Source of the DNA: Escherichia phage vB_EcoM_G2494
Reading direction: 5' to 3' (one strand)
Sequence record: MK327935.1
Length of the DNA stretch: 64,000 nt
Part shown: positions 4,059 to 47,638 of the stretch, piece by piece
Layout of the letters: each line of letters begins with the position of its first letter
Position numbering within the stretch: the stretch's first letter is position 1
The notes under the pieces: model-generated
Databases searched by the model: none
What the model was told of the DNA's origin: nothing
What the model saw: only the letters and a program-made list of their open reading frames with translations
Position numbers and translations under genes: made by a program

Positions 4059-4646
4059 CTAAATATCTAACCAAGACAAGTCAGATCCGCCAAAGATTTT
4101 TTCGACGGCGGATCTATTTTCTTGATGATATAAGTTAAAACATGGTATCCCATGTCTACGGGCAACATAAACAGCAATTCTAGTTCCTCCCGAAACGATT
4201 CCATTAACTTCTTTCGCCCAAAATATCACACAATCTACAGGGTCATCAAGTGTCTCACCTAAGACTTGAGCAACATTTCTAGAAAACAGATTTTGCATGT
4301 ATAACGGTATAGAACGAGGATTATCATAAACGTGTTCTAATTCATCCATCGCCAGATTTTTTTGTTCTAAGGTTTGCCATGCAATCACATCATGACCGTT
4401 ATGCTTGTGGTCATAAAACTTCCAATTTGGAATGAAAATTTTTCTATAATCTGGATCGTAATACTTCATGAAAGCATTGTCCATACCGTAAGCCCCTCCA
4501 GAATGCGCTACAACGCGATTTTCTGACAATACCCTCCCAATGGTACTAGCCATTATCAAAATGTCGCTAGGCGCTTTTCTAGAGCCTATTAAAGCACATC
4601 TACGAAGTGGTTTTACTCCAAATAGATCTTGTAACTGGTCAAACAT
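4059..4646 (-). CDS. SLOG/DprA-like Rossmann-fold protein (195 aa)
   Basis: GSR motif (res 21-23) and SGGAYGMD (res 49-56) typical of the DprA/Smf-LOG (SLOG) superfamily; ATG start. Confidence 0.5.
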   Translation of the reverse strand: MFDQLQDLFGVKPLRRCALIGSRKAPSDILIMASTIGRVLSENRVVAHSGGAYGMDNAFMKYYDPDYRKIFIPNWKFYDHKHNGHDVIAWQTLEQKNLAMDELEHVYDNPRSIPLYMQNLFSRNVAQVLGETLDDPVDCVIFWAKEVNGIVSGGTRIAVYVARRHGIPCFNLYHQENRSAVEKIFGGSDLSWLDI

Positions 4647-5061: not shown

Positions 5062-5499
5062 TTATTTGTTGATAACGATCTGATTTCGGCGAATGGTAAC
5101 ATTACTCTTAGAGATGATCAGATCATCCGGCACTACGTTAGTTTTGTATGGTTGGAAGCGAACAAGCATCTGATTGCGTTTAGACCCTTCCTTAATCTTG
5201 ATTTCCATCTGGATATTGTTGCCTACGTGAGCAACCGCAATTTCACCTTTATTCTCATAGACCCACTTGCTGGTAACGTCTCCAGCAAAAGCCTTAATAA
5301 CTTGCAATGCTTCGTCGTATGCGGTAGAGCTGTGAACTTTCAGAAGGCCAGCCGTAGCAAGACGGGAGCAGGTGATCGCCGGAGATTGCCAAACATCAAC
5401 ATTAATTTGCTCAATCAGAGTAACACCGCCCTGATCAACTGCTTTGAATGCTTCGAACATTGCCTTTTTCATTGCTACGTGGGTTTTACGGAATTTCAT
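5062..5499 (-). CDS. hypothetical protein (145 aa)
   Basis: ATG with AGAGGTG SD; no recognisable motif. Confidence 0.6.
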   Translation of the reverse strand: MKFRKTHVAMKKAMFEAFKAVDQGGVTLIEQINVDVWQSPAITCSRLATAGLLKVHSSTAYDEALQVIKAFAGDVTSKWVYENKGEIAVAHVGNNIQMEIKIKEGSKRNQMLVRFQPYKTNVVPDDLIISKSNVTIRRNQIVINK

Positions 5500-5545
5500 A
5501 ATTAGTCACCTCTATTGATTAGTTATTCAGAATATTAATTACAAA

Positions 5546-5821
5546 TCAGGACATTGCCCGTTTGAATGCGTCCATTATAACAGTGTTATTTGGCTTGTCA
5601 ACACGTTTTTGAACTTTATTTTTAAATTTTTTGTTGATGTGGTGTTTACGATAAACAACCTTTTCACGGTTGGCGTAAGCCTCGCGTGCATCTTTTACCA
5701 TCAACCATGCCTTAGCCGCATCTTGTCCGCTGATCCCGCCAATCTTTTTAGCAATATCAACAAAATTAAGACCGTGGTCTTCTCGTAGCATGTAAACCAT
5801 TAACGCTGTTTTCTTGTCCAT
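5546..5821 (-). CDS. hypothetical protein, possible helix-turn-helix (91 aa from internal ATG)
   Basis: ATG at 5821 overlaps the TGA of upstream ORF (ATGA-type coupling); ORF-track start at 5929 lacks an SD; start uncertain. Confidence 0.4.
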   Translation of the reverse strand: MDKKTALMVYMLREDHGLNFVDIAKKIGGISGQDAAKAWLMVKDAREAYANREKVVYRKHHINKKFKNKVQKRVDKPNNTVIMDAFKRAMS

Positions 5822-6018
5822 CACTTCGCCCCATTGACGATTAACAGGATAGTGATCAGCACCGGAAACTGGATCATGATAGTGCCAATAAACCGGATAA
5901 ACGCATTTTCTGACTTCCACACATGACATGCGACTAGCTGATATACCATTGTTGCCACCAAAGCCAGAAAATACATCTCGATTGGTGTTTCTTTGATCAA
6001 TCGTACAATCTCATTCAT
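5821..6018 (-). CDS. small membrane protein (65 aa)
   Basis: GAGGTG SD 4 nt upstream of ATG; two hydrophobic segments. Confidence 0.45.
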   Translation of the reverse strand: MNEIVRLIKETPIEMYFLALVATMVYQLVACHVWKSENAFIRFIGTIMIQFPVLITILLIVNGAK

Positions 6019-6183
6019 ACTTCACCTCATACATTCATAAACACAACAACGAATAGGACAGTAACAGTTATCAACGCCATTTTCAACCCCACATTCATAA
6101 TATTTTCTTCGCCTCACTATGGACAGTAGCATGTCGATGTGTGCCATTATAGGCATCTAAATCGCTCTGTCAAGCACAAAAAC

Positions 6184-6219: not shown

Positions 6220-7434
6220 TTAAGCAGGATGCATTTCACGAATGCGTAGAACTCGCTCTAACGTCTCTCGGTCCAGTTTATGTAACTCTTTGGAATGATA
6301 CATGAAACCATTGCGAGATTCCATGCAAGTGCAATCACTATATTTTTCTTCCGCTGCCGCGATTGTCTCCAGATCTTTGGCGTACTTGCTTGTTGAATAA
6401 ACTTCTCGATCACGCCACTCTAACCCAGCCTCATTGAATTTAACAATCTCGTCAAATACCCACCATCCAATGTAGATAAATGAAGTTTTGCGCCACGGGA
6501 TCGGGTGTACGTAACGAAACATTTTAACAACTTCCATCGAACATTTTCGGCTTGTACTTGCTGCAACTTCTACTGTTTCATCTTCGATCTGTTGATATAG
6601 TTTAGCAACACACCAGAATTTGGCTGTGTCATCGTAAGTAGCACTCTCTTTGAACAGATGACCGTCTGGAGTGATAGAAAATCCTTCCAGTGCTTCGCCG
6701 ACCTCACTACCGATCAGAGTCGGTGACATTTGCCCTTCGCGCTGCAAATACCAGTTATATTTGATCGTCAAATTAGGCATACCGCTAGAATCGCCTACAA
6801 TGTTCTCTGACACAACATAATTAAGTAAGATCTCATTACCTAGTGCCACGGTCTTTGATTCCACCACATCCTGATCTAAGTTCATTGTTGCCAGCATTAT
6901 TTTAGTCGATGCGCTAGCGGCTGAATCTTCCGACTCACCCCACACTTTTACAGTATACACGCCGTTTTTATCTGCTGTAAATTCTTGGATTGTAATATCT
7001 TTTTTTGTGTCTATAACGTCTTCGCCCTTACTCCAACTATAATGTAGTTCATAGTTGTCTGCTGGAGTCTTCCCACCAGAAAATTTTACTGTTGCATGTA
7101 ATTCTACGTCTGTTTGTGATGATACGTAGAAATGCTGCGGTTCGGTGATATTTACGATTAATTCAGCTTCTTCCATGAGAAAAACTTCAGATTCTACTGA
7201 TTCCATCGTATCGGTATCCTGTACCGTTACTTTATAGATACCCGCATTTTCACTTGTTGCGTCTGCTACAGATAGCGTAGCTGTGCTATTTTCATGTGGT
7301 TGGTCGTCTTTTGTCCATGTATATGTCAAATTGCTGGGTAATGGTTCGTCACCCGATACAGTCGCCGTTAAGGTGAAACCATCGCCAGCAAGAAAACATC
7401 TTTTGTCAGATTTAATTGATACTGTGAAAGCCAT
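6220..7434 (-). CDS. hoc: highly immunogenic outer capsid protein Hoc (Ig-like domains plus capsid-binding C-terminus)
   Basis: 404 aa; C-terminal YVHPIPWRKTSFIYIGWWVFDEIVK ... ESRNGF matches the T4 Hoc capsid-binding module. Confidence 0.8.
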   Translation of the reverse strand: MAFTVSIKSDKRCFLAGDGFTLTATVSGDEPLPSNLTYTWTKDDQPHENSTATLSVADATSENAGIYKVTVQDTDTMESVESEVFLMEEAELIVNITEPQHFYVSSQTDVELHATVKFSGGKTPADNYELHYSWSKGEDVIDTKKDITIQEFTADKNGVYTVKVWGESEDSAASASTKIMLATMNLDQDVVESKTVALGNEILLNYVVSENIVGDSSGMPNLTIKYNWYLQREGQMSPTLIGSEVGEALEGFSITPDGHLFKESATYDDTAKFWCVAKLYQQIEDETVEVAASTSRKCSMEVVKMFRYVHPIPWRKTSFIYIGWWVFDEIVKFNEAGLEWRDREVYSTSKYAKDLETIAAAEEKYSDCTCMESRNGFMYHSKELHKLDRETLERVLRIREMHPA

Positions 7435-7699: not shown

Positions 7700-8425
7700 T
7701 TACTTGAGTGTGTGGAATTGGCTGTGTTTAGTCTCTCGCACCTTGACAGACCCATCGCGTTTGATATAATAGATCAGTGACTTGAGTGTGTCGTGTACAT
7801 ACGCGTGCGGGAAACGCTCTGGATACTTCTTCCAATCTGGAGTATTAACGATCCAGTCGAAAATCCACCACGGGCAGGAGTAGTAACCACGACCGCCACC
7901 GATCAAGCAAATGGTCGGACGGAAACCAGTAAGATCGCAAAATGAATCAGTGTCATGTGCTGGGGAACGATGCTCTGCTTCGTTAGAGAAAATGTTGGCT
8001 ACCGGAGATTCCACTTTAACTTCCGGTGCTTCTTCAACATCTGACTTAACTTCTTCGACCACTGGTTCAACTGCCGGAGATTCTTCTTTTGTTTCTTCAA
8101 TGACGATCTCAGGTTCTTTCATTGCTTCAACCAGAGACGGATCAACTTCGTCGAATACCACTTTATCATCTGCGGTGTCTGTTGCCAGAATAAGATCGTT
8201 AATACTGGTTCCTTCTGCCGGAGTTTCTTCTTCCATTTCGGAAGCCAGTTTAGTTAATTCTGTTTCTACGAACTCGATCATGTTCTCTAGCGAGAGCGTC
8301 TTTTTGACCTTTATATCAAATTGTTTTGCGTAGTCCGCTAATTCTGTTTTAGCGGCTTTCTGTGATTCTTTGTCGTCGGACGCCGCAATAGCGCGGAGTT
8401 CTTCGAAATATTCTTTATCAAACAT
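7700..8425 (-). CDS. inh: Inh-like protein (acidic N-terminal region, Hoc-related C-terminal WWIFDWIV motif)
   Basis: Position between hoc and uvsW as for T4 inh; C-terminal similarity to Hoc capsid-binding region; identity to Inh from synteny only. Confidence 0.45.
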   Translation of the reverse strand: MFDKEYFEELRAIAASDDKESQKAAKTELADYAKQFDIKVKKTLSLENMIEFVETELTKLASEMEEETPAEGTSINDLILATDTADDKVVFDEVDPSLVEAMKEPEIVIEETKEESPAVEPVVEEVKSDVEEAPEVKVESPVANIFSNEAEHRSPAHDTDSFCDLTGFRPTICLIGGGRGYYSCPWWIFDWIVNTPDWKKYPERFPHAYVHDTLKSLIYYIKRDGSVKVRETKHSQFHTLK

Positions 8426-10994: not shown

Positions 10995-11381
10995 TCACTT
11001 TGCAAGTCTTATGCGTAGTTGTTCAAGATCATCTGGGTTATCTATTACTGAAAAGTAGATTGATACTATGATTGAGTTATCGTCGTACTGCGGAGTTACT
11101 TCTACTGTCAGGTTTCGGACCCGTGGTTCATAGTTTCGGATCGCCTCATTGATGTTTTTTGATAAGGTGTCCACTGTCAGTGGGTTCATGTTCTCAAACA
11201 GTGATTTATTGAGATCGCATCCAAACAGTGGATCAAATGGACGAGATCCCTTGCGAGTAGTCACGATCAGTAGAATAGAATCCTTAACCGCTTTAATCCC
11301 TATGTTCTTTTTAACGTCGTTATTCCACGATCTGGATATATTGAGATCCAAATCAGTATACATCTGATTAATAGTTGCCAT
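10995..11381 (-). CDS. 25: baseplate wedge subunit gp25
   Basis: TTRKGSRPFDP..FGCDL, FSVIDNPDD match T4 gp25; ATG at 11381 with GAGG SD (ORF-track start is TTG). Confidence 0.9.
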   Translation of the reverse strand: MATINQMYTDLDLNISRSWNNDVKKNIGIKAVKDSILLIVTTRKGSRPFDPLFGCDLNKSLFENMNPLTVDTLSKNINEAIRNYEPRVRNLTVEVTPQYDDNSIIVSIYFSVIDNPDDLEQLRIRLAK

Positions 11382-23821: not shown

Positions 23822-24063
23822 ATACGCCCCTTTAATCCAACACAGATTTTAGAAGGTTCTTTGCCGTGCCACATTAAGTAAAGTCCGTTAATGCGGCCTT
23901 GTTTTGTATATGATTCTTTTCTGATCTTCTTATAGTGTCGTGCTTCCTCAGCCGATTGTTTAGAATACCAATCATAAAGGAAGAGGCACAAAGGCCACCC
24001 ATTAGCGGCCTTAATGCAGTTATTAAGAAATTCCTTATTGCGTTTAATTAATTTTCTTTTCAC
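23818..24063 (-). CDS. hypothetical basic protein (81 aa, GTG start)
   Basis: GTG start overlapping upstream stop; part of coupled operon. Confidence 0.4.
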   Translation of the reverse strand: MKRKLIKRNKEFLNNCIKAANGWPLCLFLYDWYSKQSAEEARHYKKIRKESYTKQGRINGLYLMWHGKEPSKICVGLKGRI

Positions 24064-24311
24064 GCTGCCCCCATTGGTTTGATAGTAACAGAATCTAAAA
24101 GACCTTTGTTAGCCAGTTCGCGGCAAGTTTTCAGATCCGCAACTTCCCAGCCAGCCGCAATCAGGTTATCAATGAGGCTGTTAGCAACTTCTTCGCTCAT
24201 GAAAGAGCACTGTTTGCCGATGGTGTAGCGTACACGCTGTAATTTCAGTTTACGGAAGCCTTTAACGTTCAGGTCTTTAGCGATTTTCTTTGCGGTTTCG
24301 ATGTTAGCCAT
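24060..24311 (-). CDS. hypothetical protein (83 aa)
   Basis: First gene behind promoter 24352-24380; AGGAG SD. Confidence 0.55.
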   Translation of the reverse strand: MANIETAKKIAKDLNVKGFRKLKLQRVRYTIGKQCSFMSEEVANSLIDNLIAAGWEVADLKTCRELANKGLLDSVTIKPMGAA

Positions 24312-24380: not shown

Positions 24381-24394
24381 CACTTTTTATAAAA

Positions 24395-24562
24395 TTATTT
24401 GTTAATTTCCGGTGCGTTGCTTGGATAGTAACCTTCTTTAACACCCAGGTATTTCGCAACCATCCCTACAATCTTCTGTGCTACTACAATGTCAAATTTC
24501 AGATAATCTTCGCCGTGGGTTTCAATGATATATGCTTCACATGCTGCTTTAGTCTCGAACAT
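24395..24562 (-). CDS. small protein (55 aa), duplicate copy A
   Basis: MFETKAACEAY ...; about 89 percent identical to product of 28188-28355. Confidence 0.55.
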   Translation of the reverse strand: MFETKAACEAYIIETHGEDYLKFDIVVAQKIVGMVAKYLGVKEGYYPSNAPEINK

Positions 24563-24595
24563 TTTGATTCTCCTATTTCGTTTCGTTATGTGTGT

Positions 24596-24637: not shown

Positions 24638-25111
24638 TTATTTGCACCAAATTCGAATGATTTCGTCTCGTTCAAATTTTTGCCAGATTACTCGGTCGCC
24701 CGCTGCCATAATCCTGACAAATCCAGTTATATTTCCGGTGTACTTGCTTTTAGTTTCTGCATCATATTCAAAGAATGGAGCTTTAAGATCGCTAAACTCA
24801 TCTTTTCCCACAAACTTCATAACATGACGGTGTGCGTAATATTCGCTTCTTAGTGTTGTTGTGATAGTTCCGTCATCATTTGATTTCAGATGCAATTCGG
24901 CATCTTCATAAAGACTTGCATCTCGTTGTTTACTTTCGATACCATCATTATATGTTGATTTGGTTGCACTCCAACATTGATATGTCTTATCTACATTTTC
25001 GATCTTTTCCTGTGTCATGTCAAAAAGCGGCGCAACCTTTTTCTTAGCCGCGTGCGCAACGTTGGTCATAGACAGTGCCGCAACAACCGCAATAGCAATA
25101 ATTTTCTTCAT
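24638..25111 (-). CDS. secreted/periplasmic protein with signal peptide (157 aa)
   Basis: MKKIIAIAVVAALSMTNVAHA signal peptide; AAAGGAG SD. Confidence 0.6.
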   Translation of the reverse strand: MKKIIAIAVVAALSMTNVAHAAKKKVAPLFDMTQEKIENVDKTYQCWSATKSTYNDGIESKQRDASLYEDAELHLKSNDDGTITTTLRSEYYAHRHVMKFVGKDEFSDLKAPFFEYDAETKSKYTGNITGFVRIMAAGDRVIWQKFERDEIIRIWCK

Positions 25112-25487: not shown

Positions 25488-25516
25488 ATTATGCTATGTT
25501 CTTACTTTGGTGTCAA
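25488..25516 (-). promoter_or_regulatory. early promoter TTGACA-17-CATAAT
   Basis: Read on minus strand. Confidence 0.55.
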
Positions 25517-25524
25517 CAACTTTT

Positions 25525-25794
25525 TTAGATATTTTCAGAAATAAATTTTAAAACTTGACGTAAATGTTTCTCGTCTTTGATAGTCGCCGGAAGTTCTTCT
25601 TTTACTTCCTGTGCAAGATAGATATTTCCGTTCCAAGTGAAAGATCCGTCTTCGTTTACGCGATAGCTGAACATCCACTCGCAATCATTTTCGATTTCAT
25701 ATACACACAGAAGGGTGTAATCTTCAAAGCTATTGATTTCAAGGTCGAAGCCGTGACGTTTTGCAAAGTTGGTAGTGGTTTTAGTCAGTGCCAT
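25525..25794 (-). CDS. hypothetical protein (89 aa)
   Basis: ATG start behind promoter 25835-25863. Confidence 0.55.
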   Translation of the reverse strand: MALTKTTTNFAKRHGFDLEINSFEDYTLLCVYEIENDCEWMFSYRVNEDGSFTWNGNIYLAQEVKEELPATIKDEKHLRQVLKFISENI

Positions 25795-25834
25795 TGTTTG
25801 ATTCTCCTAAGTGGTATCTCGTTTCGATGTGTGT

Positions 25835-25863
25835 ATTATGCTATAGGCGTGATCTGGTGTCAA
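25835..25863 (-). promoter_or_regulatory. early promoter TTGACA-17-CATAAT
   Basis: Read on minus strand. Confidence 0.55.
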
Positions 25864-25920
25864 TGCCTTTTTTAAAATTTTATGCAATAAAAAAGCCGAC
25901 ACTAAGGTCGGCTAATAAAA

Positions 25921-26229
25921 TCATTTAGACAAATAATCATTCTGTGCAATCCGGTCGGCGTATGCTGGTGTTATGTCAATCGCCAGCACTTTAACGCGTG
26001 CTTTCTTGCGACCTGGGTTTTCTCGTAACCAGTGCTCATGACCGTGAACATTTTTATACTGCGATGCTTCTTCGAAGGTACGGATCGGACCTGGGTAATC
26101 AGCGTAAAGGATCTCTAGATCTTCGGTGATGTAAAAATATACATCGTAATTGCTGTTCTCTAGCTTAAGCAGAGACTTTCGGAACATTGGGAGATTTTCG
26201 CGGGTAAATTCAAAGATATTATCTTTCAT
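25921..26229 (-). CDS. HxHxW-motif paralog family member A (102 aa)
   Basis: YFYITEDLEILY ... HGHEHW ... VLAIDI shared with six neighbours. Confidence 0.55.
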   Translation of the reverse strand: MKDNIFEFTRENLPMFRKSLLKLENSNYDVYFYITEDLEILYADYPGPIRTFEEASQYKNVHGHEHWLRENPGRKKARVKVLAIDITPAYADRIAQNDYLSK

Positions 26230-26279
26230 AGTATTATCCTCAATAGTTGGATGAAAAGGGGGGCTTAACGCCCCGTATA

Positions 26280-26567
26280 TTAAAACAGTCCTTCCTGTAC
26301 ACCGTAGTAGAGTTCATCGCTGATAATTTCATTAATGCGACGGTGTGCATATTCCTGATTTGCGAAGTTGTCAGCAAGTTCTACTTTAGTTTCGCCGTCA
26401 TGAGTCCATTTAGTGATAACTTTACCATCTGCAAATTTGAAGTTGAACTCTTTAGCTACCGCATCGCGTACCAGACGTGCAAACTTATTGTTGCGGATTG
26501 CATTGTCGGTTTCGTGTTCAGCGTGAGCGAATTTGTTAACTTTCAGAGTGATAGTAATGTATGCCAT
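26280..26567 (-). CDS. hypothetical protein, KEFN-motif paralog 1 (95 aa)
   Basis: RLVRDAVAKEFNFK; paralog of 29845-30156. Confidence 0.5.
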   Translation of the reverse strand: MAYITITLKVNKFAHAEHETDNAIRNNKFARLVRDAVAKEFNFKFADGKVITKWTHDGETKVELADNFANQEYAHRRINEIISDELYYGVQEGLF

Positions 26568-26613
26568 AATTTGATTCTCCTAGTTAGAAAGTGTATCTCG
26601 TTTCGATGGGTGT

Positions 26614-26642
26614 ATTATGCTATACACCCGATCTTATGTCAA
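26614..26642 (-). promoter_or_regulatory. early promoter TTGACA-17-CATAAT
   Basis: Read on minus strand. Confidence 0.55.
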
Positions 26643-26648
26643 CACTTT

Positions 26649-26927
26649 TTATAAAATAATTTTTTGATATTTTTCTATGATGTTTGTGTAGGTCACATCA
26701 ACCGCGAGCACCGTTGCTTCGAATCCACCGTTTAGCCAATGGCTATGATCGTGATCGTTAAAGAAACCGAGGCCAGTGCGAAGACCTTCTTTATATTCGG
26801 CGCGTACATTCAGTTTGTCGTCGATAAACAGATAAAACCATGAATTTTTACTAGGATTGATGATACAACCTTTCAGATTAGGGAGAATATCACGACTAAG
26901 AATAAACTTATCACCTACTTTGAACAT
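26649..26927 (-). CDS. HxHxW-motif paralog family member B
   Basis: HDHSHW ... VLAVDV; ATG at 26927 with GAGGA SD (ORF-track start 26942 is GTG). Confidence 0.5.
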   Translation of the reverse strand: MFKVGDKFILSRDILPNLKGCIINPSKNSWFYLFIDDKLNVRAEYKEGLRTGLGFFNDHDHSHWLNGGFEATVLAVDVTYTNIIEKYQKIIL

Positions 26928-26931
26928 AATA

Positions 26932-27252
26932 TTAGTCCTCACTTATAAGGTCAAACCAATTGTTTTTCGCATAATGCTTAATGCGTGCTTGATCTGCTTC
27001 CGCTGGTGATAGATTCCATGCGATCACTACAACTTCTGACGCATCGTCATCCGTTTCTGATATCCAATGATTGTGATTCATACAGTTATTTGCTATCGCG
27101 TGAGCAAATGATCTCATTACTGGAGACGTATAATCATAGTAACGGATTTTCAGATTTTCATCAACGTACAAATAGATCGTATAAGGTTTATATTCAGTAA
27201 CCAGTAACAGACAGTTACGCAATTCTGGGAAAATCTTTTTAGTTAATTTCAT
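26932..27252 (-). CDS. HxHxW-motif paralog family member C (106 aa)
   Basis: YLYVDENLKIRY ... NHNHW ... VVVIAW. Confidence 0.5.
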   Translation of the reverse strand: MKLTKKIFPELRNCLLLVTEYKPYTIYLYVDENLKIRYYDYTSPVMRSFAHAIANNCMNHNHWISETDDDASEVVVIAWNLSPAEADQARIKHYAKNNWFDLISED

Positions 27253-27454
27253 AGTCTATTTCTCCGTAATACACGGTAATCCATTTTTCTTCATACTTTG
27301 TATCTTTCCAACACACAATCCCGTTTACTGTGCAATCTTTGGAATTGACGAATGATTCATATTGTTCTGCGTCTTCCATCATTGCATGAGCGGTCTTTTC
27401 ATCGAATATATCGCAGATCGCTTTATATGCTCAATAATCTTTAAATTTGCTCAT
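27239..27454 (-). pseudogene. paralog of 27457-27666 with in-frame TGA at codon 8 (27431-27433)
   Basis: Identical first 7 codons (MSKFKDY), then TGA, then 63 further open codons; no alternative start with SD. Confidence 0.45.
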
Positions 27455-27456
27455 AA

Positions 27457-27666
27457 TTAAGACCACTCAAGAGTTTTTGAAAACACATCTATCCATTGTT
27501 GAGTATATGCGGTTTCTTTCCATGATACAATACCAGTAGAATAATGGTTTTTGTTTCCAGAAAAGGACGGGCATTTTGATGCGTCTTCCATCATCTTTTC
27601 GGCGAACTCTGGTTCGTATACTCGCAAGATCTGTTGATATGCTTTGTAGTCTTTAAATTTGCTCAT
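27457..27666 (-). CDS. hypothetical protein (69 aa)
   Basis: ATG start; intact paralog of 27239-27454. Confidence 0.5.
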   Translation of the reverse strand: MSKFKDYKAYQQILRVYEPEFAEKMMEDASKCPSFSGNKNHYSTGIVSWKETAYTQQWIDVFSKTLEWS

Positions 27667-27931
27667 AATCGTTAACTACCTTATCAGCTTCTTTTATTGT
27701 TTTTACATCAACTGCGATAACCCGTAAAGGTTCGTCATGGTTCCACCAATGATCGTGAATATCGGCTTGTGATTTATCACCAAAGGAATCACGAATATCA
27801 TTTTTACATTTATAGCTAATGTGACCTTCATAGTCAACATAAAGGTAATTATCGAAAATCGGCGTTTTTAAGATCATACCGAAAAATCTTTCTTTGTGTG
27901 TCTTATCCAGTGTTGCAGTAATTCGCATCAT
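27653..27931 (-). CDS. HxHxW-motif paralog family member D (92 aa)
   Basis: YLYVDYEGHISY ... HDHWW ... VIAVDV; AAGAGGAA SD. Confidence 0.5.
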   Translation of the reverse strand: MMRITATLDKTHKERFFGMILKTPIFDNYLYVDYEGHISYKCKNDIRDSFGDKSQADIHDHWWNHDEPLRVIAVDVKTIKEADKVVNDYEQI

Positions 27932-27943
27932 AATATATTCCTC

Positions 27944-28123
27944 TTAGAAAGGGATGGTCATTTCTTGAGCTTGTACATTCTCGTTAGGATTAAACTTCAT
28001 CCAACCGATATTGTCTACCAGCATATGCACATTTTTATCATATCCTACGTGAGTAGTCAACACTAAATGTGATTTACCTTCAACGATGATTTCCATGTAC
28101 TTCTGAACTTCGATAGCTTTCAT
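27944..28123 (-). CDS. small hypothetical protein (59 aa)
   Basis: Hand-translated; ATG behind GGAGAATCAAA; below ORF-track size cutoff. Confidence 0.4.
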   Translation of the reverse strand: MKAIEVQKYMEIIVEGKSHLVLTTHVGYDKNVHMLVDNIGWMKFNPNENVQAQEMTIPF

Positions 28124-28155
28124 TTTGATTCTCCGTTTGTTGTCTTGATGGGAGT

Positions 28156-28184
28156 ATCTTACTACTCCCTTTAATCATTGTCAA
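28156..28184 (-). promoter_or_regulatory. putative early promoter (TTGACA-17-TAAGAT) with stem-loop
   Basis: GGGAGTAGTAAGATACTCCC hairpin overlaps the -10. Confidence 0.4.
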
Positions 28185-28187
28185 CGA

Positions 28188-28355
28188 TTATTTGTTAATT
28201 TCCGGTGCGTTGCTTGGATAGTAGCCTTCTTTAACACCCAGATATTTTGCAACCATTCCGGTGATCTTCTGTGCTACTACGATATCGAATTTCAGGTAGT
28301 CTTCACCGTGGTTTGCTACAATGTATGCTTCGCATTCTGCTTTAGTCTGGAACAT
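28188..28355 (-). CDS. small protein (55 aa), duplicate copy B
   Basis: MFQTKAECEAY ...; ATG behind AGGAGAATCAAAA; ORF-track N-terminal extension is the promoter region. Confidence 0.55.
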   Translation of the reverse strand: MFQTKAECEAYIVANHGEDYLKFDIVVAQKITGMVAKYLGVKEGYYPSNAPEINK

Positions 28356-28389
28356 TTTTGATTCTCCTATATCTCGTTGGTATGTGTGT

Positions 28390-28418
28390 AGTATAGGGGA
28401 TCGGTGATCCCCTGTCAA
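28390..28418 (-). promoter_or_regulatory. early promoter TTGACA-17-TATACT with palindromic spacer GGGGATCACCGATCCCC
   Basis: Read on minus strand. Confidence 0.6.
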
Positions 28419-28428
28419 CAACTTTTTT

Positions 28429-28737
28429 TTATTCTTCATCTTCATCATTATCTTTATATGCGTACTTCATAAATTTGTCTGCTACTTCGTCCGCGTTTTC
28501 AGGTTCTACGTCTGACGCTAGGACAACAGCTAGTTCGGTTTTGTCGTTTCCATCATACCAATGATTATGAGTGTCGTTTTCTTCGATATAAAACGAATCA
28601 GTTGGAGTTGTGCGACAATATACGTCTAAATTCCCATCGATATAAAAGATCCAATCCGAATACAAAATGATTGTTTTAGCAAGATTTTTATTGTCTCTCA
28701 CAAAAGGTTCTGAGACAAATAGCTTAGTTTGTTCCAT
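28429..28737 (-). CDS. HxHxW-motif paralog family member E (acidic C-terminus)
   Basis: DWIFYIDGNLDVY ... THNHW ... LAVVLA; ATG at 28737 with GAGGA SD (ORF-track start is GTG). Confidence 0.5.
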   Translation of the reverse strand: MEQTKLFVSEPFVRDNKNLAKTIILYSDWIFYIDGNLDVYCRTTPTDSFYIEENDTHNHWYDGNDKTELAVVLASDVEPENADEVADKFMKYAYKDNDEDEE

Positions 28738-28753
28738 AACATTTTCCTCAAAA

Positions 28754-28945
28754 TTATACAGCTTCGTAAACTTCCCAATGTCCAGCGCCAACACGCTTAA
28801 CGAAAAGGTTTTCTTTGATGTTATTCATAAACGTCTGGATGGATTTAATGCGGTTTGAAGGTTTCCAGTCTTCGTTGGAATTGCGTCGATACATCATAAC
28901 ATTACCAGTTCGCTTATATTCAGCAACCATTTTAAGACCATACAT
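28754..28945 (-). CDS. hypothetical protein (63 aa)
   Basis: ATG start downstream of promoter 28994-29022. Confidence 0.45.
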   Translation of the reverse strand: MYGLKMVAEYKRTGNVMMYRRNSNEDWKPSNRIKSIQTFMNNIKENLFVKRVGAGHWEVYEAV

Positions 28946-28993
28946 AATATTATCATCAATTTGTGGGAGAGTATTACCCTCCCGATTATTGTT

Positions 28994-29022
28994 ATACTAC
29001 ATTACGCAAAATGGCGTGTCAA
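28994..29022 (-). promoter_or_regulatory. early promoter TTGACA-17-TAGTAT embedded in 3' end of upstream gene
   Basis: Read on minus strand; followed by GGGAG ... CTCCC hairpin. Confidence 0.45.
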
Positions 29023-29305
29023 TACTTCTTTTTGCTGTTCCGCTAAGATTCTCGATCTCTCCTGGCATAACATCAACCGCCAGAACTTCTACAACATCCT
29101 CTGATCCTAACCAGTGAGTATGACCTTTGTAGAACTTGATATCCCATTTATCGCTATCGCTAGCCCACCACACATCACCGTCTATAAAGTTGATGTAAAG
29201 CACACTACGACACATTGAATTAGTTACTTTCAATACTGCGCCTTTCATCTCTTCCACGGTATGGTCTTCCATTTTGAAGACCTCGCCTACCTTAACTTTT
29301 GCCAT
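28997..29305 (-). CDS. HxHxW-motif paralog family member F
   Basis: VLYINFIDGDVWW ... GHTHW ... VLAVDV; ATG at 29305 chosen by alignment with paralogs, weak SD. Confidence 0.45.
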   Translation of the reverse strand: MAKVKVGEVFKMEDHTVEEMKGAVLKVTNSMCRSVLYINFIDGDVWWASDSDKWDIKFYKGHTHWLGSEDVVEVLAVDVMPGEIENLSGTAKRSIDTPFCVM

Positions 29306-29306
29306 G

Positions 29307-29573
29307 TTACATGTTCCGAATATGTTTAGATGCATCTTCCAGTTCGTCGATAGTGACACTGTGAGCCAGTAAGTGTACTGGTTGTGGTTCTTCACCTTCC
29401 ATAGTATTGATCAGATGACCGTTTCCTGGGTGGAATGTATCGTTGCCGTTCCAAATAGCATACACATCATCTTCTGTTACGTAGATAATAAGTCCAATCG
29501 GTGATTCTGGTAATTGAAAAATTTTACCCACTGCATCTTTGCGATTGTCTACGATATCTTTGACTGTCTTCAT
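29307..29573 (-). CDS. divergent member G of HxHxW paralog family (88 aa)
   Basis: LIIYVTEDDVYAIW ... HPGNGH ... VHLLAHSV; AGAGAGG SD. Confidence 0.45.
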   Translation of the reverse strand: MKTVKDIVDNRKDAVGKIFQLPESPIGLIIYVTEDDVYAIWNGNDTFHPGNGHLINTMEGEEPQPVHLLAHSVTIDELEDASKHIRNM

Positions 29574-29592
29574 TTAGTTACCTCTCTTTAAA

Positions 29593-29772
29593 TTACATCA
29601 CAATCACGCCAGCCGTAGAAAGTTGATGTTTCAACTGAGCATTTTCTGCTACTGTCAAATCAATAATTTCTTGTGACGCTGCAATCATATAGCCATTGGT
29701 GATATTGTTTTGCATCAGTTCAATGGTTTCTTCGTTGTAGCGGATTTTAGCGATGATTTCGTTGAAGTTCAT
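29593..29772 (-). CDS. small hypothetical protein (59 aa)
   Basis: Hand-translated; ATG behind AGGAGAATCAATT. Confidence 0.4.
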   Translation of the reverse strand: MNFNEIIAKIRYNEETIELMQNNITNGYMIAASQEIIDLTVAENAQLKHQLSTAGVIVM

Positions 29773-29806
29773 AATTGATTCTCCTAGTTCGTTTCGGTAT
29801 GTGTGT

Positions 29807-29836
29807 ATTATAGGGGAGTTTAACCTCCCCTGTCAA
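29807..29836 (-). promoter_or_regulatory. early promoter (TTGACA-18-TATAAT) with palindromic spacer GGGGAGGTTAAACTCCCC
   Basis: Read on minus strand. Confidence 0.55.
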
Positions 29837-29844
29837 CAACTTTT

Positions 29845-30156
29845 TTAAAGTTTTTCCATGATAACGGTCATAATTACATCTTCTGCGCGAGCGGTCAGAT
29901 TATCAGCGTCAGCATGTGGGCGGTTGGTTGTTACAGAGATAACACCGTTGCGCACTGGTTTGATATTGATATCAAGATGATCCGCGAAACGTTCGCCAGT
30001 TACAGAATGAATTTTGGTGTTAAATTCTTTTGCCAGTGCCTTGCGAACTTCACGAATCAGGATAGCGTTTTTCAGTTGGTTCTCCGCGCTCATGGTCTTC
30101 TGGGTGTTCATGGTTCCGTCGAAGTCAATCATTGGCAGCGTTACGATGTATTTCAT
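29845..30156 (-). CDS. hypothetical protein, KEFN-motif paralog 2 (103 aa)
   Basis: REVRKALAKEFNTK; paralog of 26280-26567. Confidence 0.5.
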   Translation of the reverse strand: MKYIVTLPMIDFDGTMNTQKTMSAENQLKNAILIREVRKALAKEFNTKIHSVTGERFADHLDINIKPVRNGVISVTTNRPHADADNLTARAEDVIMTVIMEKL

Positions 30157-30201
30157 TTTTGATTCTCCGTTTAAGAAAGTGTGTTTCGTTTTGATGTGTG
30201 T

Positions 30202-30230
30202 AGTATAGGGGATACGTGATCCCCTGTCAA
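30202..30230 (-). promoter_or_regulatory. early promoter TTGACA-17-TATACT with palindromic spacer GGGGATCACGTATCCCC
   Basis: Read on minus strand. Confidence 0.6.
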
Positions 30231-30323
30231 CAACTTTTTTGAATTATTTTTTCATGAGCTTAATGGCTTCTTCCATAGCCAGCACATTTCGATAGTTAGG
30301 GTATCGTGTTAGATCGTCATACA

Positions 30324-30355
30324 TTCGCTTAAGGGTGGATTCGCTTAAGGGTGGA
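30324..30355. repeat. perfect 16-bp tandem duplication (ttcgcttaagggtgga x2)
   Basis: Direct reading; sits at the 3' end of CDS 30329-30589 and shifts its frame. Confidence 0.9.
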
Positions 30356-30589
30356 AACTTCCTCAAACTCTGGGTTTTCTAGATACAGTTGAACAAATTG
30401 TTTCTCTACCATCTCGGCTTTTAGCTTGTCTGCTTGTTCCTGTTCATATGATTTAGTTGGACCCAACACCAACAAAATGATAAAGGTGATCAACGATAGG
30501 AGAACATAACCGATAACGCTACGGTTTAAACGGCTTGCGTACATGCCTACCAGGAAAACAAAAAGGATATAGATAAACAGAAAGAACAT
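30329..30589 (-). CDS. small membrane protein, C-terminally truncated by 16-bp duplication
   Basis: Two hydrophobic helices; without the duplication the frame would run 25 codons further and stop at about 30244-30246, directly at the next promoter UP element. Confidence 0.5.
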   Translation of the reverse strand: MFFLFIYILFVFLVGMYASRLNRSVIGYVLLSLITFIILLVLGPTKSYEQEQADKLKAEMVEKQFVQLYLENPEFEEVSTLKRIHP

Positions 30590-47284: not shown

Positions 47285-47312
47285 ATTATACATCATCTGT
47301 GTTCGGCGTCAA
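47285..47312 (-). promoter_or_regulatory. early promoter TTGACG-16-TATAAT
   Basis: Read on minus strand. Confidence 0.5.
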
Positions 47313-47638
47313 CCTTTTTGTTCCATGAAAAGCGGTGCTGTTTCTTCTTTCAGTTTAATAACTAGCGCGGAAACTTCATCAAGAAAATCTTTTTCCATAT
47401 GAGCAAGCATTGATTTAGAATCTTTGATGACTTTCAAAGAATATTCACTTAGATTTCCTTTTCCTAACAATAATGCAGGATACACACTATGTGGGATCTC
47501 GATTTCATGATATTCACTCATAGTATAATATTTGTGAATTTTTAAATCTATATTTCTTCGTTGTACGTCTACATCAGCAATGACATACAGACGTTCGATT
47601 TTATCACTTTTTTGAGAAAGGGTAGCATTCAAAAACAT
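47309..47638 (-). CDS. hypothetical protein (109 aa)
   Basis: ATG start behind promoter 47668-47695. Confidence 0.55.
   Translation of the reverse strand: MFLNATLSQKSDKIERLYVIADVDVQRRNIDLKIHKYYTMSEYHEIEIPHSVYPALLLGKGNLSEYSLKVIKDSKSMLAHMEKDFLDEVSALVIKLKEETAPLFMEQKG

Follow-up and report, generated by a model that had tools for sequence, protein, structure and literature searches.

An ordered array of seven divergent homologous genes in the alt to gene 30 region of a Krischvirus phage

T4-type phages devote much of their genomes to ORFans of hyperplastic regions, whose roles are almost entirely unknown, and several recently found anti-defence proteins are of this ORFan type. The block between alt and gene 30 is one such hyperplastic region, described for phages RB49 and phi1 (Arbiol et al., 2010; PMC2839356). 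Two RB49/phi1 repeat elements of the type termed PeSL (193/192 and 206/205) were tested as strong sigma-70 promoters, and the 211/210 stem-loop as a terminator (PMC2839356). In the same work, ORFan192 is the PeSL-flanked cassette used to illustrate mini-circle excision and ORFan210 is one of the PeSL "mini-circle" genes; a term search of that paper found no mention of paralog families. Here a family of seven small genes, c1 to c7, is described in the corresponding block of Escherichia phage vB_EcoM_G2494 (sequence record MK327935.1), of which a stretch of 64,000 nt, termed the window, was analysed.

The region from 25500 to 30200 gives 58 matches among phage records, at 91-96% nucleotide identity, all to Krischvirus-like Escherichia/Shigella phages. 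By nucleotide comparison the source phage is a Krischvirus, an RB49-like T4-type coliphage. All seven open reading frames (ORFs) proposed by a first-pass annotation, which had been made from the letters of the DNA, are present. They are on the minus strand, in a block of small genes between alt (ADP-ribosyltransferase) and HNH/gene 30 DNA ligase. Synteny of the block is clear with RB49, phi1, JSE and others, and its orthologs in RB49, pEJ01, G2248, PHB13, phi1, JSE and JK32 are always annotated "hypothetical protein".

The seven genes and their relationship

The members of the array, with the size of the product, the form of the motif and the PHROG assignment, are as follows.

c1, 25921..26229 (-): 102 amino acids (aa), HGHEHW, phrog_9345; an intrinsic terminator follows
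c2, 26649..26927 (-): 92 aa, HDHSHW, phrog_17255; the copy modelled by AlphaFold2
c3, 26932..27252 (-): 106 aa, NHNHW, phrog_9345
c4, 27653..27931 (-): 92 aa, IHDHWW, phrog_15972
c5, 28429..28737 (-): 102 aa, THNHW, phrog_15965; very acidic, isoelectric point (pI) 4.2, net charge -16
c6, 28997..29305 (-): 102 aa, GHTHW, phrog_16486; starts 1 nt past the c7 stop
c7, 29307..29573 (-): 88 aa, GNGHLI instead of HxHW; a variable cassette

Each ORF is preceded by a Shine-Dalgarno sequence or starts by translational coupling, and the lengths equal those of annotated hypothetical proteins in RB49, pEJ01 or G2248. The genes c1 to c6 are RB49 ORFs 197, 199, 200, 203, 206 and 208, which are hypothetical in RB49, phi1 and JSE. 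Their PHROG matches are at E 1e-49 to 1e-64, and all five PHROGs carry the label "unknown function". The products range from 88 to 106 aa and in pI from 4.2 (c5) to 6.8 (c2), and they display no conserved Cys.

Identity to c1 is 24-34% for c2 to c6 and 20% for c7, in line with the ∼25-35% mutual identity that had been estimated. In BLASTP comparisons with the 222 ORFs of the window, the best non-self matches of c1 to c6 are one another; the closest paralog of c3 is c1 (34% identity, E 3e-12). Hidden Markov models (HMMs) built from five copies recovered the sixth each time, at E 2.7e-14, 1.4e-9, 1.7e-13, 2.1e-7, 3.8e-9 and 1.1e-7 for c1 to c6, respectively, among the 222 window ORFs, and the best unrelated ORF in these runs was at E ∼0.03. 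Cross-matches between PHROGs tie c2, c3, c4 and c5 to phrog_9345, the family of c1 and c3. The pattern H.HW is found in precisely c1 to c6 among the window ORFs, with 0.19 expected. It is again found in c1 to c6 alone among the 2,291 six-frame ORFs of a whole genome equivalent, i.e., the window plus the rest of pEJ01. The paralogy of c1 to c6 is far beyond chance, and both the divergent tandem family first proposed and the statistical standing of the motif shared by c1 to c6 are borne out. No further HMM members were found in the 2,291 ORFs. Three candidates for extra copies (10995-11381, 47309-47638 and 24638-25111), which had scored E 0.03-0.7 in early HMMs, were gone with an improved profile.

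Detection of c7 by BLAST or by a plain HMM of c1 to c6 failed (E 0.05-0.4). A c7 profile built from five homolog clusters was aligned by hhalign with the c1 to c6 profile at 95.1% probability and E 3.4e-8, with 76 columns in register. This alignment scores 47.5, whereas the scores of 200 column-shuffled controls are 10.5 ± 2.3 (maximum 18.0), which gives a z of ∼16, and the reversed profile reaches 18.0. In the reciprocal direction, the c7 HMM finds c6 at E 8.6e-4. In a fold search of BFVD, the c2 model matches an 88-aa JSE protein, with a template modelling (TM) score of 0.60 and a probability of 0.99; by its length and phage this is presumably the c7 ortholog. The AlphaFold model of c7 itself (6 sequences) is of low confidence, with a predicted local distance difference test (pLDDT) score of 63.6, and only its secondary-structure order was used. 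By profile comparison c7 is a remote homolog, which makes seven homologs in all, six of them with the motif.

Conservation was measured on 53 sequences (∼20 clusters at 62% identity), with weighting and in c2 numbering. The only invariant residues are a His and a Trp, H63 and W64 (1.00 each), followed by H61 (0.99), Y34 (0.90), F55 (0.85), D36 and V78 (0.83 each) and A75 (0.77); position 62 is N or D in 86%. The signature reads phi-Y-phi-D ... F ... H-[N/D]-H-W-phi ... V-L-A-x-(D/N)-V-x-P-x-x-A-D. The first-pass annotation had given the shared motif as HxHxW. A His-x-His-Trp core is indeed present in c1 to c6, but the spacing is H-x-H-W and c7 does not have the motif. A third His is found in c1 (HGHEHW) and c2 (HDHSHW), and c7 keeps one His. 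A conserved His pair plus Asp, previously suggested as a metal or nucleotide site, is not upheld in that form: the Asp of VLAVDV can be D, N, G or E, with conservation below 55%, and the first His is replaced in a few c5-type sequences (Ser in two orthologs, Asn in the protein P0095). The D36 equivalent is T in c1 and N in c6. Variation within subfamilies is concentrated at the N-terminus, the loops before and after HxHW and the C-terminal tail, and the loop just before HxHW is rich in indels.

The AlphaFold2 model of c2 (39 sequences) is confident, with pLDDT 90.5 and a predicted TM score of 0.85. The predicted topology is b1-a1-b2-b3-b4-a2-a3-b5-a4, with HxHW at the N-terminus of a3 and VLAVDV as b5; DSSP places H63 and W64 of the model inside the helix and H61 just before it. 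The structure prediction that had been called for yields no significant structural neighbour in the Protein Data Bank (PDB), the best Foldseek match being at E 0.23. In BFVD the best matches are Krischvirus paralogs, and one unnamed 104-aa protein was found at 9% identity (TM 0.57).

Scans of the seven proteins with Pfam, NCBIfam and PADLOC, and of 39 members with Pfam, gave nothing above threshold. A PDB sequence profile search returned matches at E 0.66 and E 7 only, and weak library matches (PROCT, TTL and others) are inconsistent between members. The first-pass annotation did not recognise the family, and these searches, by sequence and by fold, gave no known relative. Weak fold matches to papain-like proteins (C39, Josephin, Cif), ATP-grasp and KOW/SH3 were set aside, as they show no conserved catalytic residue and have noise-level scores; a papain-like catalytic Cys at a helix N-terminus together with a His is not found in the family. 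HIT hydrolases were also rejected: three His are present in c1 and c2 only, the intervening residues are G/E or D/S and not hydrophobic, and there is no Pfam HIT match. HNH was rejected on motif grammar. The proteins are small, soluble, cytoplasmic alpha/beta proteins of 88-106 aa that form a lineage-specific superfamily. No description of them as a family was found in the searchable literature by locus tags, ORF names, paralogs or Krischvirus anti-defence. Already known are the sequences as hypothetical proteins and the PeSL-rich hyperplastic regions full of ORFans; new is the union of five PHROGs and the orphan c7 in a single superfamily that has an H-[N/D]-H-W core and forms an ordered array.

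Order, age and exchange of the copies

The array was compared across 12 Krischvirus loci, the window and 11 others, with the SSG23 locus cut at its end. Six slots, c1 to c6, are in identical order in 10 complete loci, and the end-cut SSG23 shows c6 to c2. The gene c7 is present in 5 of the 12. Its insertion point is exactly the start codon of c6, whose ribosome-binding site leader it takes over. Alleles differ at several slots. At c4, phi1, GEC-3S and FL38 have an allele with ∼57% identity to the common form, the c5 alleles fall into two classes (∼72% and ∼94% identity), and c6 orthologs are 78-93% identical, with a loop indel. In JSE, the c2 and c3 slots are filled by two c3-type genes whose identity to c3 is 44% and 53%. 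In a Krischvirus contig of IMG/VR (IMGVR_UViG_3300045988_033703; L022 7660-8119), a deletion joins a truncated c2 to a homolog of window 24060-24311. It removes a gene of another repeated family, famC, together with c1 and five more ORFans; the genes at 29845-30589 are also missing from the contig. The comparison of copy number across related phages, which had been suggested, thus shows a fixed six-slot order with alleles swapped at c4, c5 and c2/c3. Presence varies between close phages by way of c7, the c1/c2 deletion and allele replacement, and the six core slots are stable.

Some copies show sequence irregularities. In JSE, frameshifts break up c1 and c5 into two ORFs each; the altered JSE genes lie at 5448-6130, 6459-6847 and 4196-4490 of its locus (L012). 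The split genes could be pseudogenes or 454-era sequencing errors. In the window, the 3′ end of c6 (∼29020-29025) has one more A in an A-run (AAAA to AAAAA) than pEJ01 and PHB13. This frameshifts the last ∼10 codons, from ...AKEALTRHFA* to ...AKRSIDTPFCVM*, and may be either a genuine variant or a sequencing error in the homopolymer.

Outside of these loci the family is sparse. A profile search of 5.8 billion clustered proteins found 88 clusters, each at least 54% identical to one of c1 to c6. The profile search that had been recommended, run exhaustively with HMMER on 1.84 billion representatives, found only 20 matches at E ≤ 1e-3. With one member as query, tblastn against 50,697 phage records found 56 records, all Krischvirus-like, and in IMG/VR all contigs found with the c5-subfamily alignment are of Krischvirus. 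As far as these databases reach, the family is tiny and lineage-specific, confined among phage isolates to Krischvirus, with a few metagenomic relatives in addition.

A neighbour-joining tree, calculated without bootstrap, displays five subfamilies (c6, c4, c1/c3, c5 and c2), and divergent metagenomic members nest inside them. One metagenomic contig of 2.1 kb (L003) is syntenic with the array, with c6-like, c4-like and c3-like genes at 48, 38 and 46% identity. The genes on it are, in order, a homolog of the 59-aa ORF 29593-29772, the c6-like gene, a homolog of the 59-aa ORF 27944-28123, a fused c2-like plus c5-like gene, the c4-like gene and the c3-like gene. The fusion, P0094 (203 aa, L003 823-1434), carries a c2-type and a c5-type domain within a five-domain tandem array. 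The shared subfamilies and this synteny imply that the duplications predate the divergence of Krischvirus and the metagenomic lineages. The copies evidently arose by old tandem duplication into five subfamilies, plus the outlier c7.

The ratio of nonsynonymous to synonymous substitution rates (dN/dS) between orthologs is 0.23, 0.11, 0.23, 0.12, 0.14 and 0.22 for c1 to c6, values which indicate that purifying selection maintains each of these genes; for c7 the substitutions are too few for such a reading. In terms of its sequences, the array looks like an old, ordered set under purifying selection, with long-standing subfunctionalisation and occasional allele exchange, and not like a recent arms-race amplification.

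Exchange also appears to extend beyond Krischvirus. A 97-aa homolog of c7 (64% identity) is found at 8001-8294 of Salmonella enterica contigs L015-L018. There it is the last gene of a prophage-like element that encodes a GpA terminase and pRha and is bordered by chromosomal genes for PHP and 2-hydroxyacid dehydrogenase. Because the homolog sits at a prophage end, horizontal exchange of the c7 cassette between virulent and temperate phages is implied.

Two further observations concern the 59-aa ORFan at 27944-28123 (-). It has a weak match to the c7 profile (E 0.016, window ORF set), and its N-terminus (MKAIEVQKY) is joined to the C-terminal half of c6 in a 71-aa chimera, P0088. The chimera suggests recombination between array genes.

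Transcription units and neighbouring gene families

PeSLs are repeated intergenic elements of 60-95 nt in which an A-rich tract precedes a promoter with TTGACA and TATAAT or TATACT, and the spacer between these two boxes contains a GGGG...CCCC hairpin. Minus-strand PeSLs are found at 30230, 29836, 28418, 26642 and 25863 and represent consensus sigma-70 promoters with embedded G4/C4 stem-loops. Those at 30230, 29836, 28418 and 26642 have 11-12 of 12 consensus positions, a spacer of 17 or 18 nt and hairpins of -11 to -15 kcal/mol. The array lies in a hyperplastic location between core genes and has sigma-70 promoters with an A-rich upstream tract and a polyG/polyC stem-loop. The features closest to the family genes are listed below.

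29807..29836 (-): PeSL; TTGACA, 18-nt spacer, TATAAT, 12/12 consensus; hairpin -15.0 kcal/mol, z -3.2
28390..28418 (-): PeSL early promoter/attenuator, directly after the c5 stop; -13.8 kcal/mol, z -3.6
26614..26642 (-): PeSL early promoter, directly after the c2 stop; -13.8 kcal/mol, z -4.0
25894-25913: intrinsic terminator after c1; hairpin of -11.2 kcal/mol, then a T-run
27457-27666 and 27239-27457 (-): famD pair (phrog_8471), in tandem between c4 and c3

Three units result. The unit from the promoter at 29836 comprises a 59-aa ORF, c7, c6, a 63-aa ORF and c5. From the promoter at 28418 follow famB, a 59-aa ORF, c4, two famD genes, c3 and c2, and from that at 26642 famC (26280-26567) and c1, then the terminator. 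The element at 28390-28418 matches PeSL206/205 by position. The early-region location assumed in the first-pass annotation is supported by these consensus promoters, and, by promoter type, the family genes would be expressed early.

Other small gene families are duplicated in the same region. The two famB copies (phrog_8009, 55 aa), at 24394-24565 and 28187-28358 (-), share 172 nt at 87% identity, and each lies directly downstream of a PeSL promoter. The pair suggests a recent PeSL-associated duplication. The famC pair, at 26280-26567 and 29845-30156 (-), belongs to phrog_7474 and corresponds to RB49 ORF198 and ORFan210. ORFan192 is the 157-aa ORF at 24638-25111 (-), which has an N-terminal signal-like hydrophobic segment; it is present in the window, RB49 and MIZ6 and absent in pEJ01, phi1 and G2248.

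The famD copy at 27239-27457 has a premature TAA at codon 8 (MSKFKDY*), and the gene is intact at 72 aa in other Krischviruses. In one metagenomic contig (L005, 95-331), the c3/c1-type members have famD-like genes immediately upstream. In another (L004, 318-1100), two famD-like domains and a c3-type domain form one 260-aa ORF. This fusion may be a Rosetta-stone hint of a functional link between famD and the c3-type proteins.

Candidate functions and comparison with known systems

The favoured reading, put forward tentatively and held to be somewhat short of probable, is that the copies are non-essential host-directed accessory factors, for takeover or counter-defence, with a common scaffold and paralog-specific surfaces. 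The context makes a takeover or counter-defence role plausible: the hyperplastic region, the dispensable copies, the allele replacement and the c7 homolog at a prophage end. The dN/dS values of c1 to c6 and the confident c2 model are evidence of real proteins. On one scaffold, the Y-phi-D strand, the H-[N/D]-H-W-phi helix start and the V-L-A-x-(D/N)-V strand would make up a shared core or binding site. Each paralog would owe its own partner to the variable N-terminus, the loops flanking HxHW and the differing surface charge. Several points weigh against this reading. No homology to a known takeover or anti-defence protein was found in Pfam, NCBIfam, PADLOC or the PDB sequence and fold searches, and the early timing of the family genes is deduced from the type of their promoters. 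The low dN/dS and the stable copy order are unlike a classic arms-race signature. An H/W pair that is invariant at ∼25% identity could point to one shared activity or ligand and not to diversified partners, and the pair could equally be purely structural.

A role for the H-x-H-W motif itself is the basis of two alternatives. The copies might be metal-binding mini-domains, probably for Zn2+, in which the His pair of H-[N/D]-H-W chelates the ion in a structural or catalytic centre, with the Asp of the Y-phi-D strand or the His pair of a second protomer as remaining ligands. This would be compatible with the host-directed role favoured above. The high conservation of H61, H63, N/D62 and D36 and the third His in c1 and c2 are in keeping with it. 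The sole PDB sequence match over the motif is to the Zn-binding pneumococcal histidine-triad repeat of PhtD, which aligns Y-x-x-E-D-G-Y-I-F ... H-x-x-H-x-H-W with Y-I-D-E-D-L ... H-N-H-W, but that match is non-significant. The candidate acidic ligands vary, both at D36 and in VLAVDV, the first His is Ser or Asn in some c5-type members, c7 retains a single His, and there is no conserved Cys. In the c2 model, the helical H63/W64 and the preceding H61 would give poor geometry for i/i+2 chelation. On balance metal binding is judged unlikely. By analogy with Tad2 (DUF2829), Tad1 and Acb2, the proteins might instead be small oligomers that bind or sequester nucleotide-type ligands (sponges), for example immune second messengers, with His-Trp stacking on and hydrogen-bonding the ligand and with paralogs tuned to different signals. 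A size of ∼90-100 aa, early expression and an invariant aromatic residue plus His would fit a ligand pocket. DUF2829 proteins are among the weak BFVD matches, and the best local hhalign segment puts the family W on the conserved W of the Tad2/AcrIIA7 "GWLASQ". Against this, the alignment of the family (A3) with Tad2/SptTad2/AcrIIA7 has a probability of 0.25% and E 0.24, and DUF2829/Tad2/AcrIIA7 was therefore rejected at the sequence level. PF11195 (DUF2829) gave no match in 39 members at E ≤ 10, and the fold search of the PDB was likewise without a significant match. The sponge interpretation is accordingly given very little chance.

The genes could also be near-neutral ORFans with no important host-directed role, cassettes that PeSL-mediated recombination and tandem duplication keep shuffling. 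The region is dense in PeSLs and in the duplicated families famB, famC and famD, ORFans 192 and 210 undergo PeSL-mediated gain and loss in the same region (PMC2839356), and single copies are lost or frameshifted in some phages. The ortholog dN/dS of 0.11-0.23 speaks for selection on the proteins, the subfamilies are retained between lineages at 38-48% identity, and H and W are invariant across the family. Moreover, all six slots are found in every complete isolate locus examined, and five in the end-cut SSG23. Near-neutrality is thus considered very improbable. A bolder form of the host-directed reading, speculative and quite unlikely, is a battery of structurally novel small inhibitors. In it H-[N/D]-H-W would bind a common moiety, a nucleotide-derived immune signal or a metal, and each paralog would target its own host defence or signalling molecule, as a multi-specific counter-defence cassette with a fold absent from the PDB.

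Among hyperplastic-region ORFans the family is unusual in that it is multi-copy, old and purifying-selected, with an absolutely conserved H-W core and a confident model that has no significant structural neighbour. It is therefore a tractable target, consisting of seven small soluble proteins. The natural allele swaps (c4, c5 and the JSE c2/c3) and the presence or absence of c7 can be used for correlation with host range. If the proteins are inhibitors or sponges, a new fold and an ordered array of subfunctionalised paralogs would represent a new organisational principle in phage counter-defence. If not, the gain is a cleaner annotation, with five PHROGs and one orphan merged.

Compared with described families, PHROGs 9345, 17255, 15972, 15965 and 16486 contain the same proteins but are split into five unrelated-looking families, and c7 is in none of them. 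The DUF2829/Tad2/AcrIIA7 proteins are, like this family, small phage proteins of ∼90-100 aa, without a profile relationship to it. Pht repeats are similarly arranged, with an acidic beta-strand followed after ∼20 residues by a His-rich motif that has an aromatic residue at its end; their motif reads HxxHxH and not HxHW, and the profile match is at E = 7. Pht proteins are surface proteins of Gram-positive bacteria.

With respect to organisation, Srikant, Guegler and Laub reportedly described in 2022 an "accordion" at T4 tifA/dmd, a tandem amplification of anti-defence loci. The likeness is in multi-copy early accessory genes in a plastic region of a T4-type phage. Accordions are recent and near-identical, with variable copy number, whereas the present array, whose copies are 20-35% identical to one another, is old, ordered and stable. 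The closest described system is that of the PeSL-bounded ORFan cassettes (Arbiol et al., 2010; PMC2839356), which belong to the same phage group, the same region and the same early promoter/stem-loop elements; ORFan192 and ORFan210 lie in the window at 24638-25111 and 29845-30156. Unlike these cassettes, most family members have no individual PeSL flanks and are inside multi-gene, translationally coupled units. Unlike PeSL exchange, the c7 indel is a precise insertion at the level of the ORF, at a start codon.

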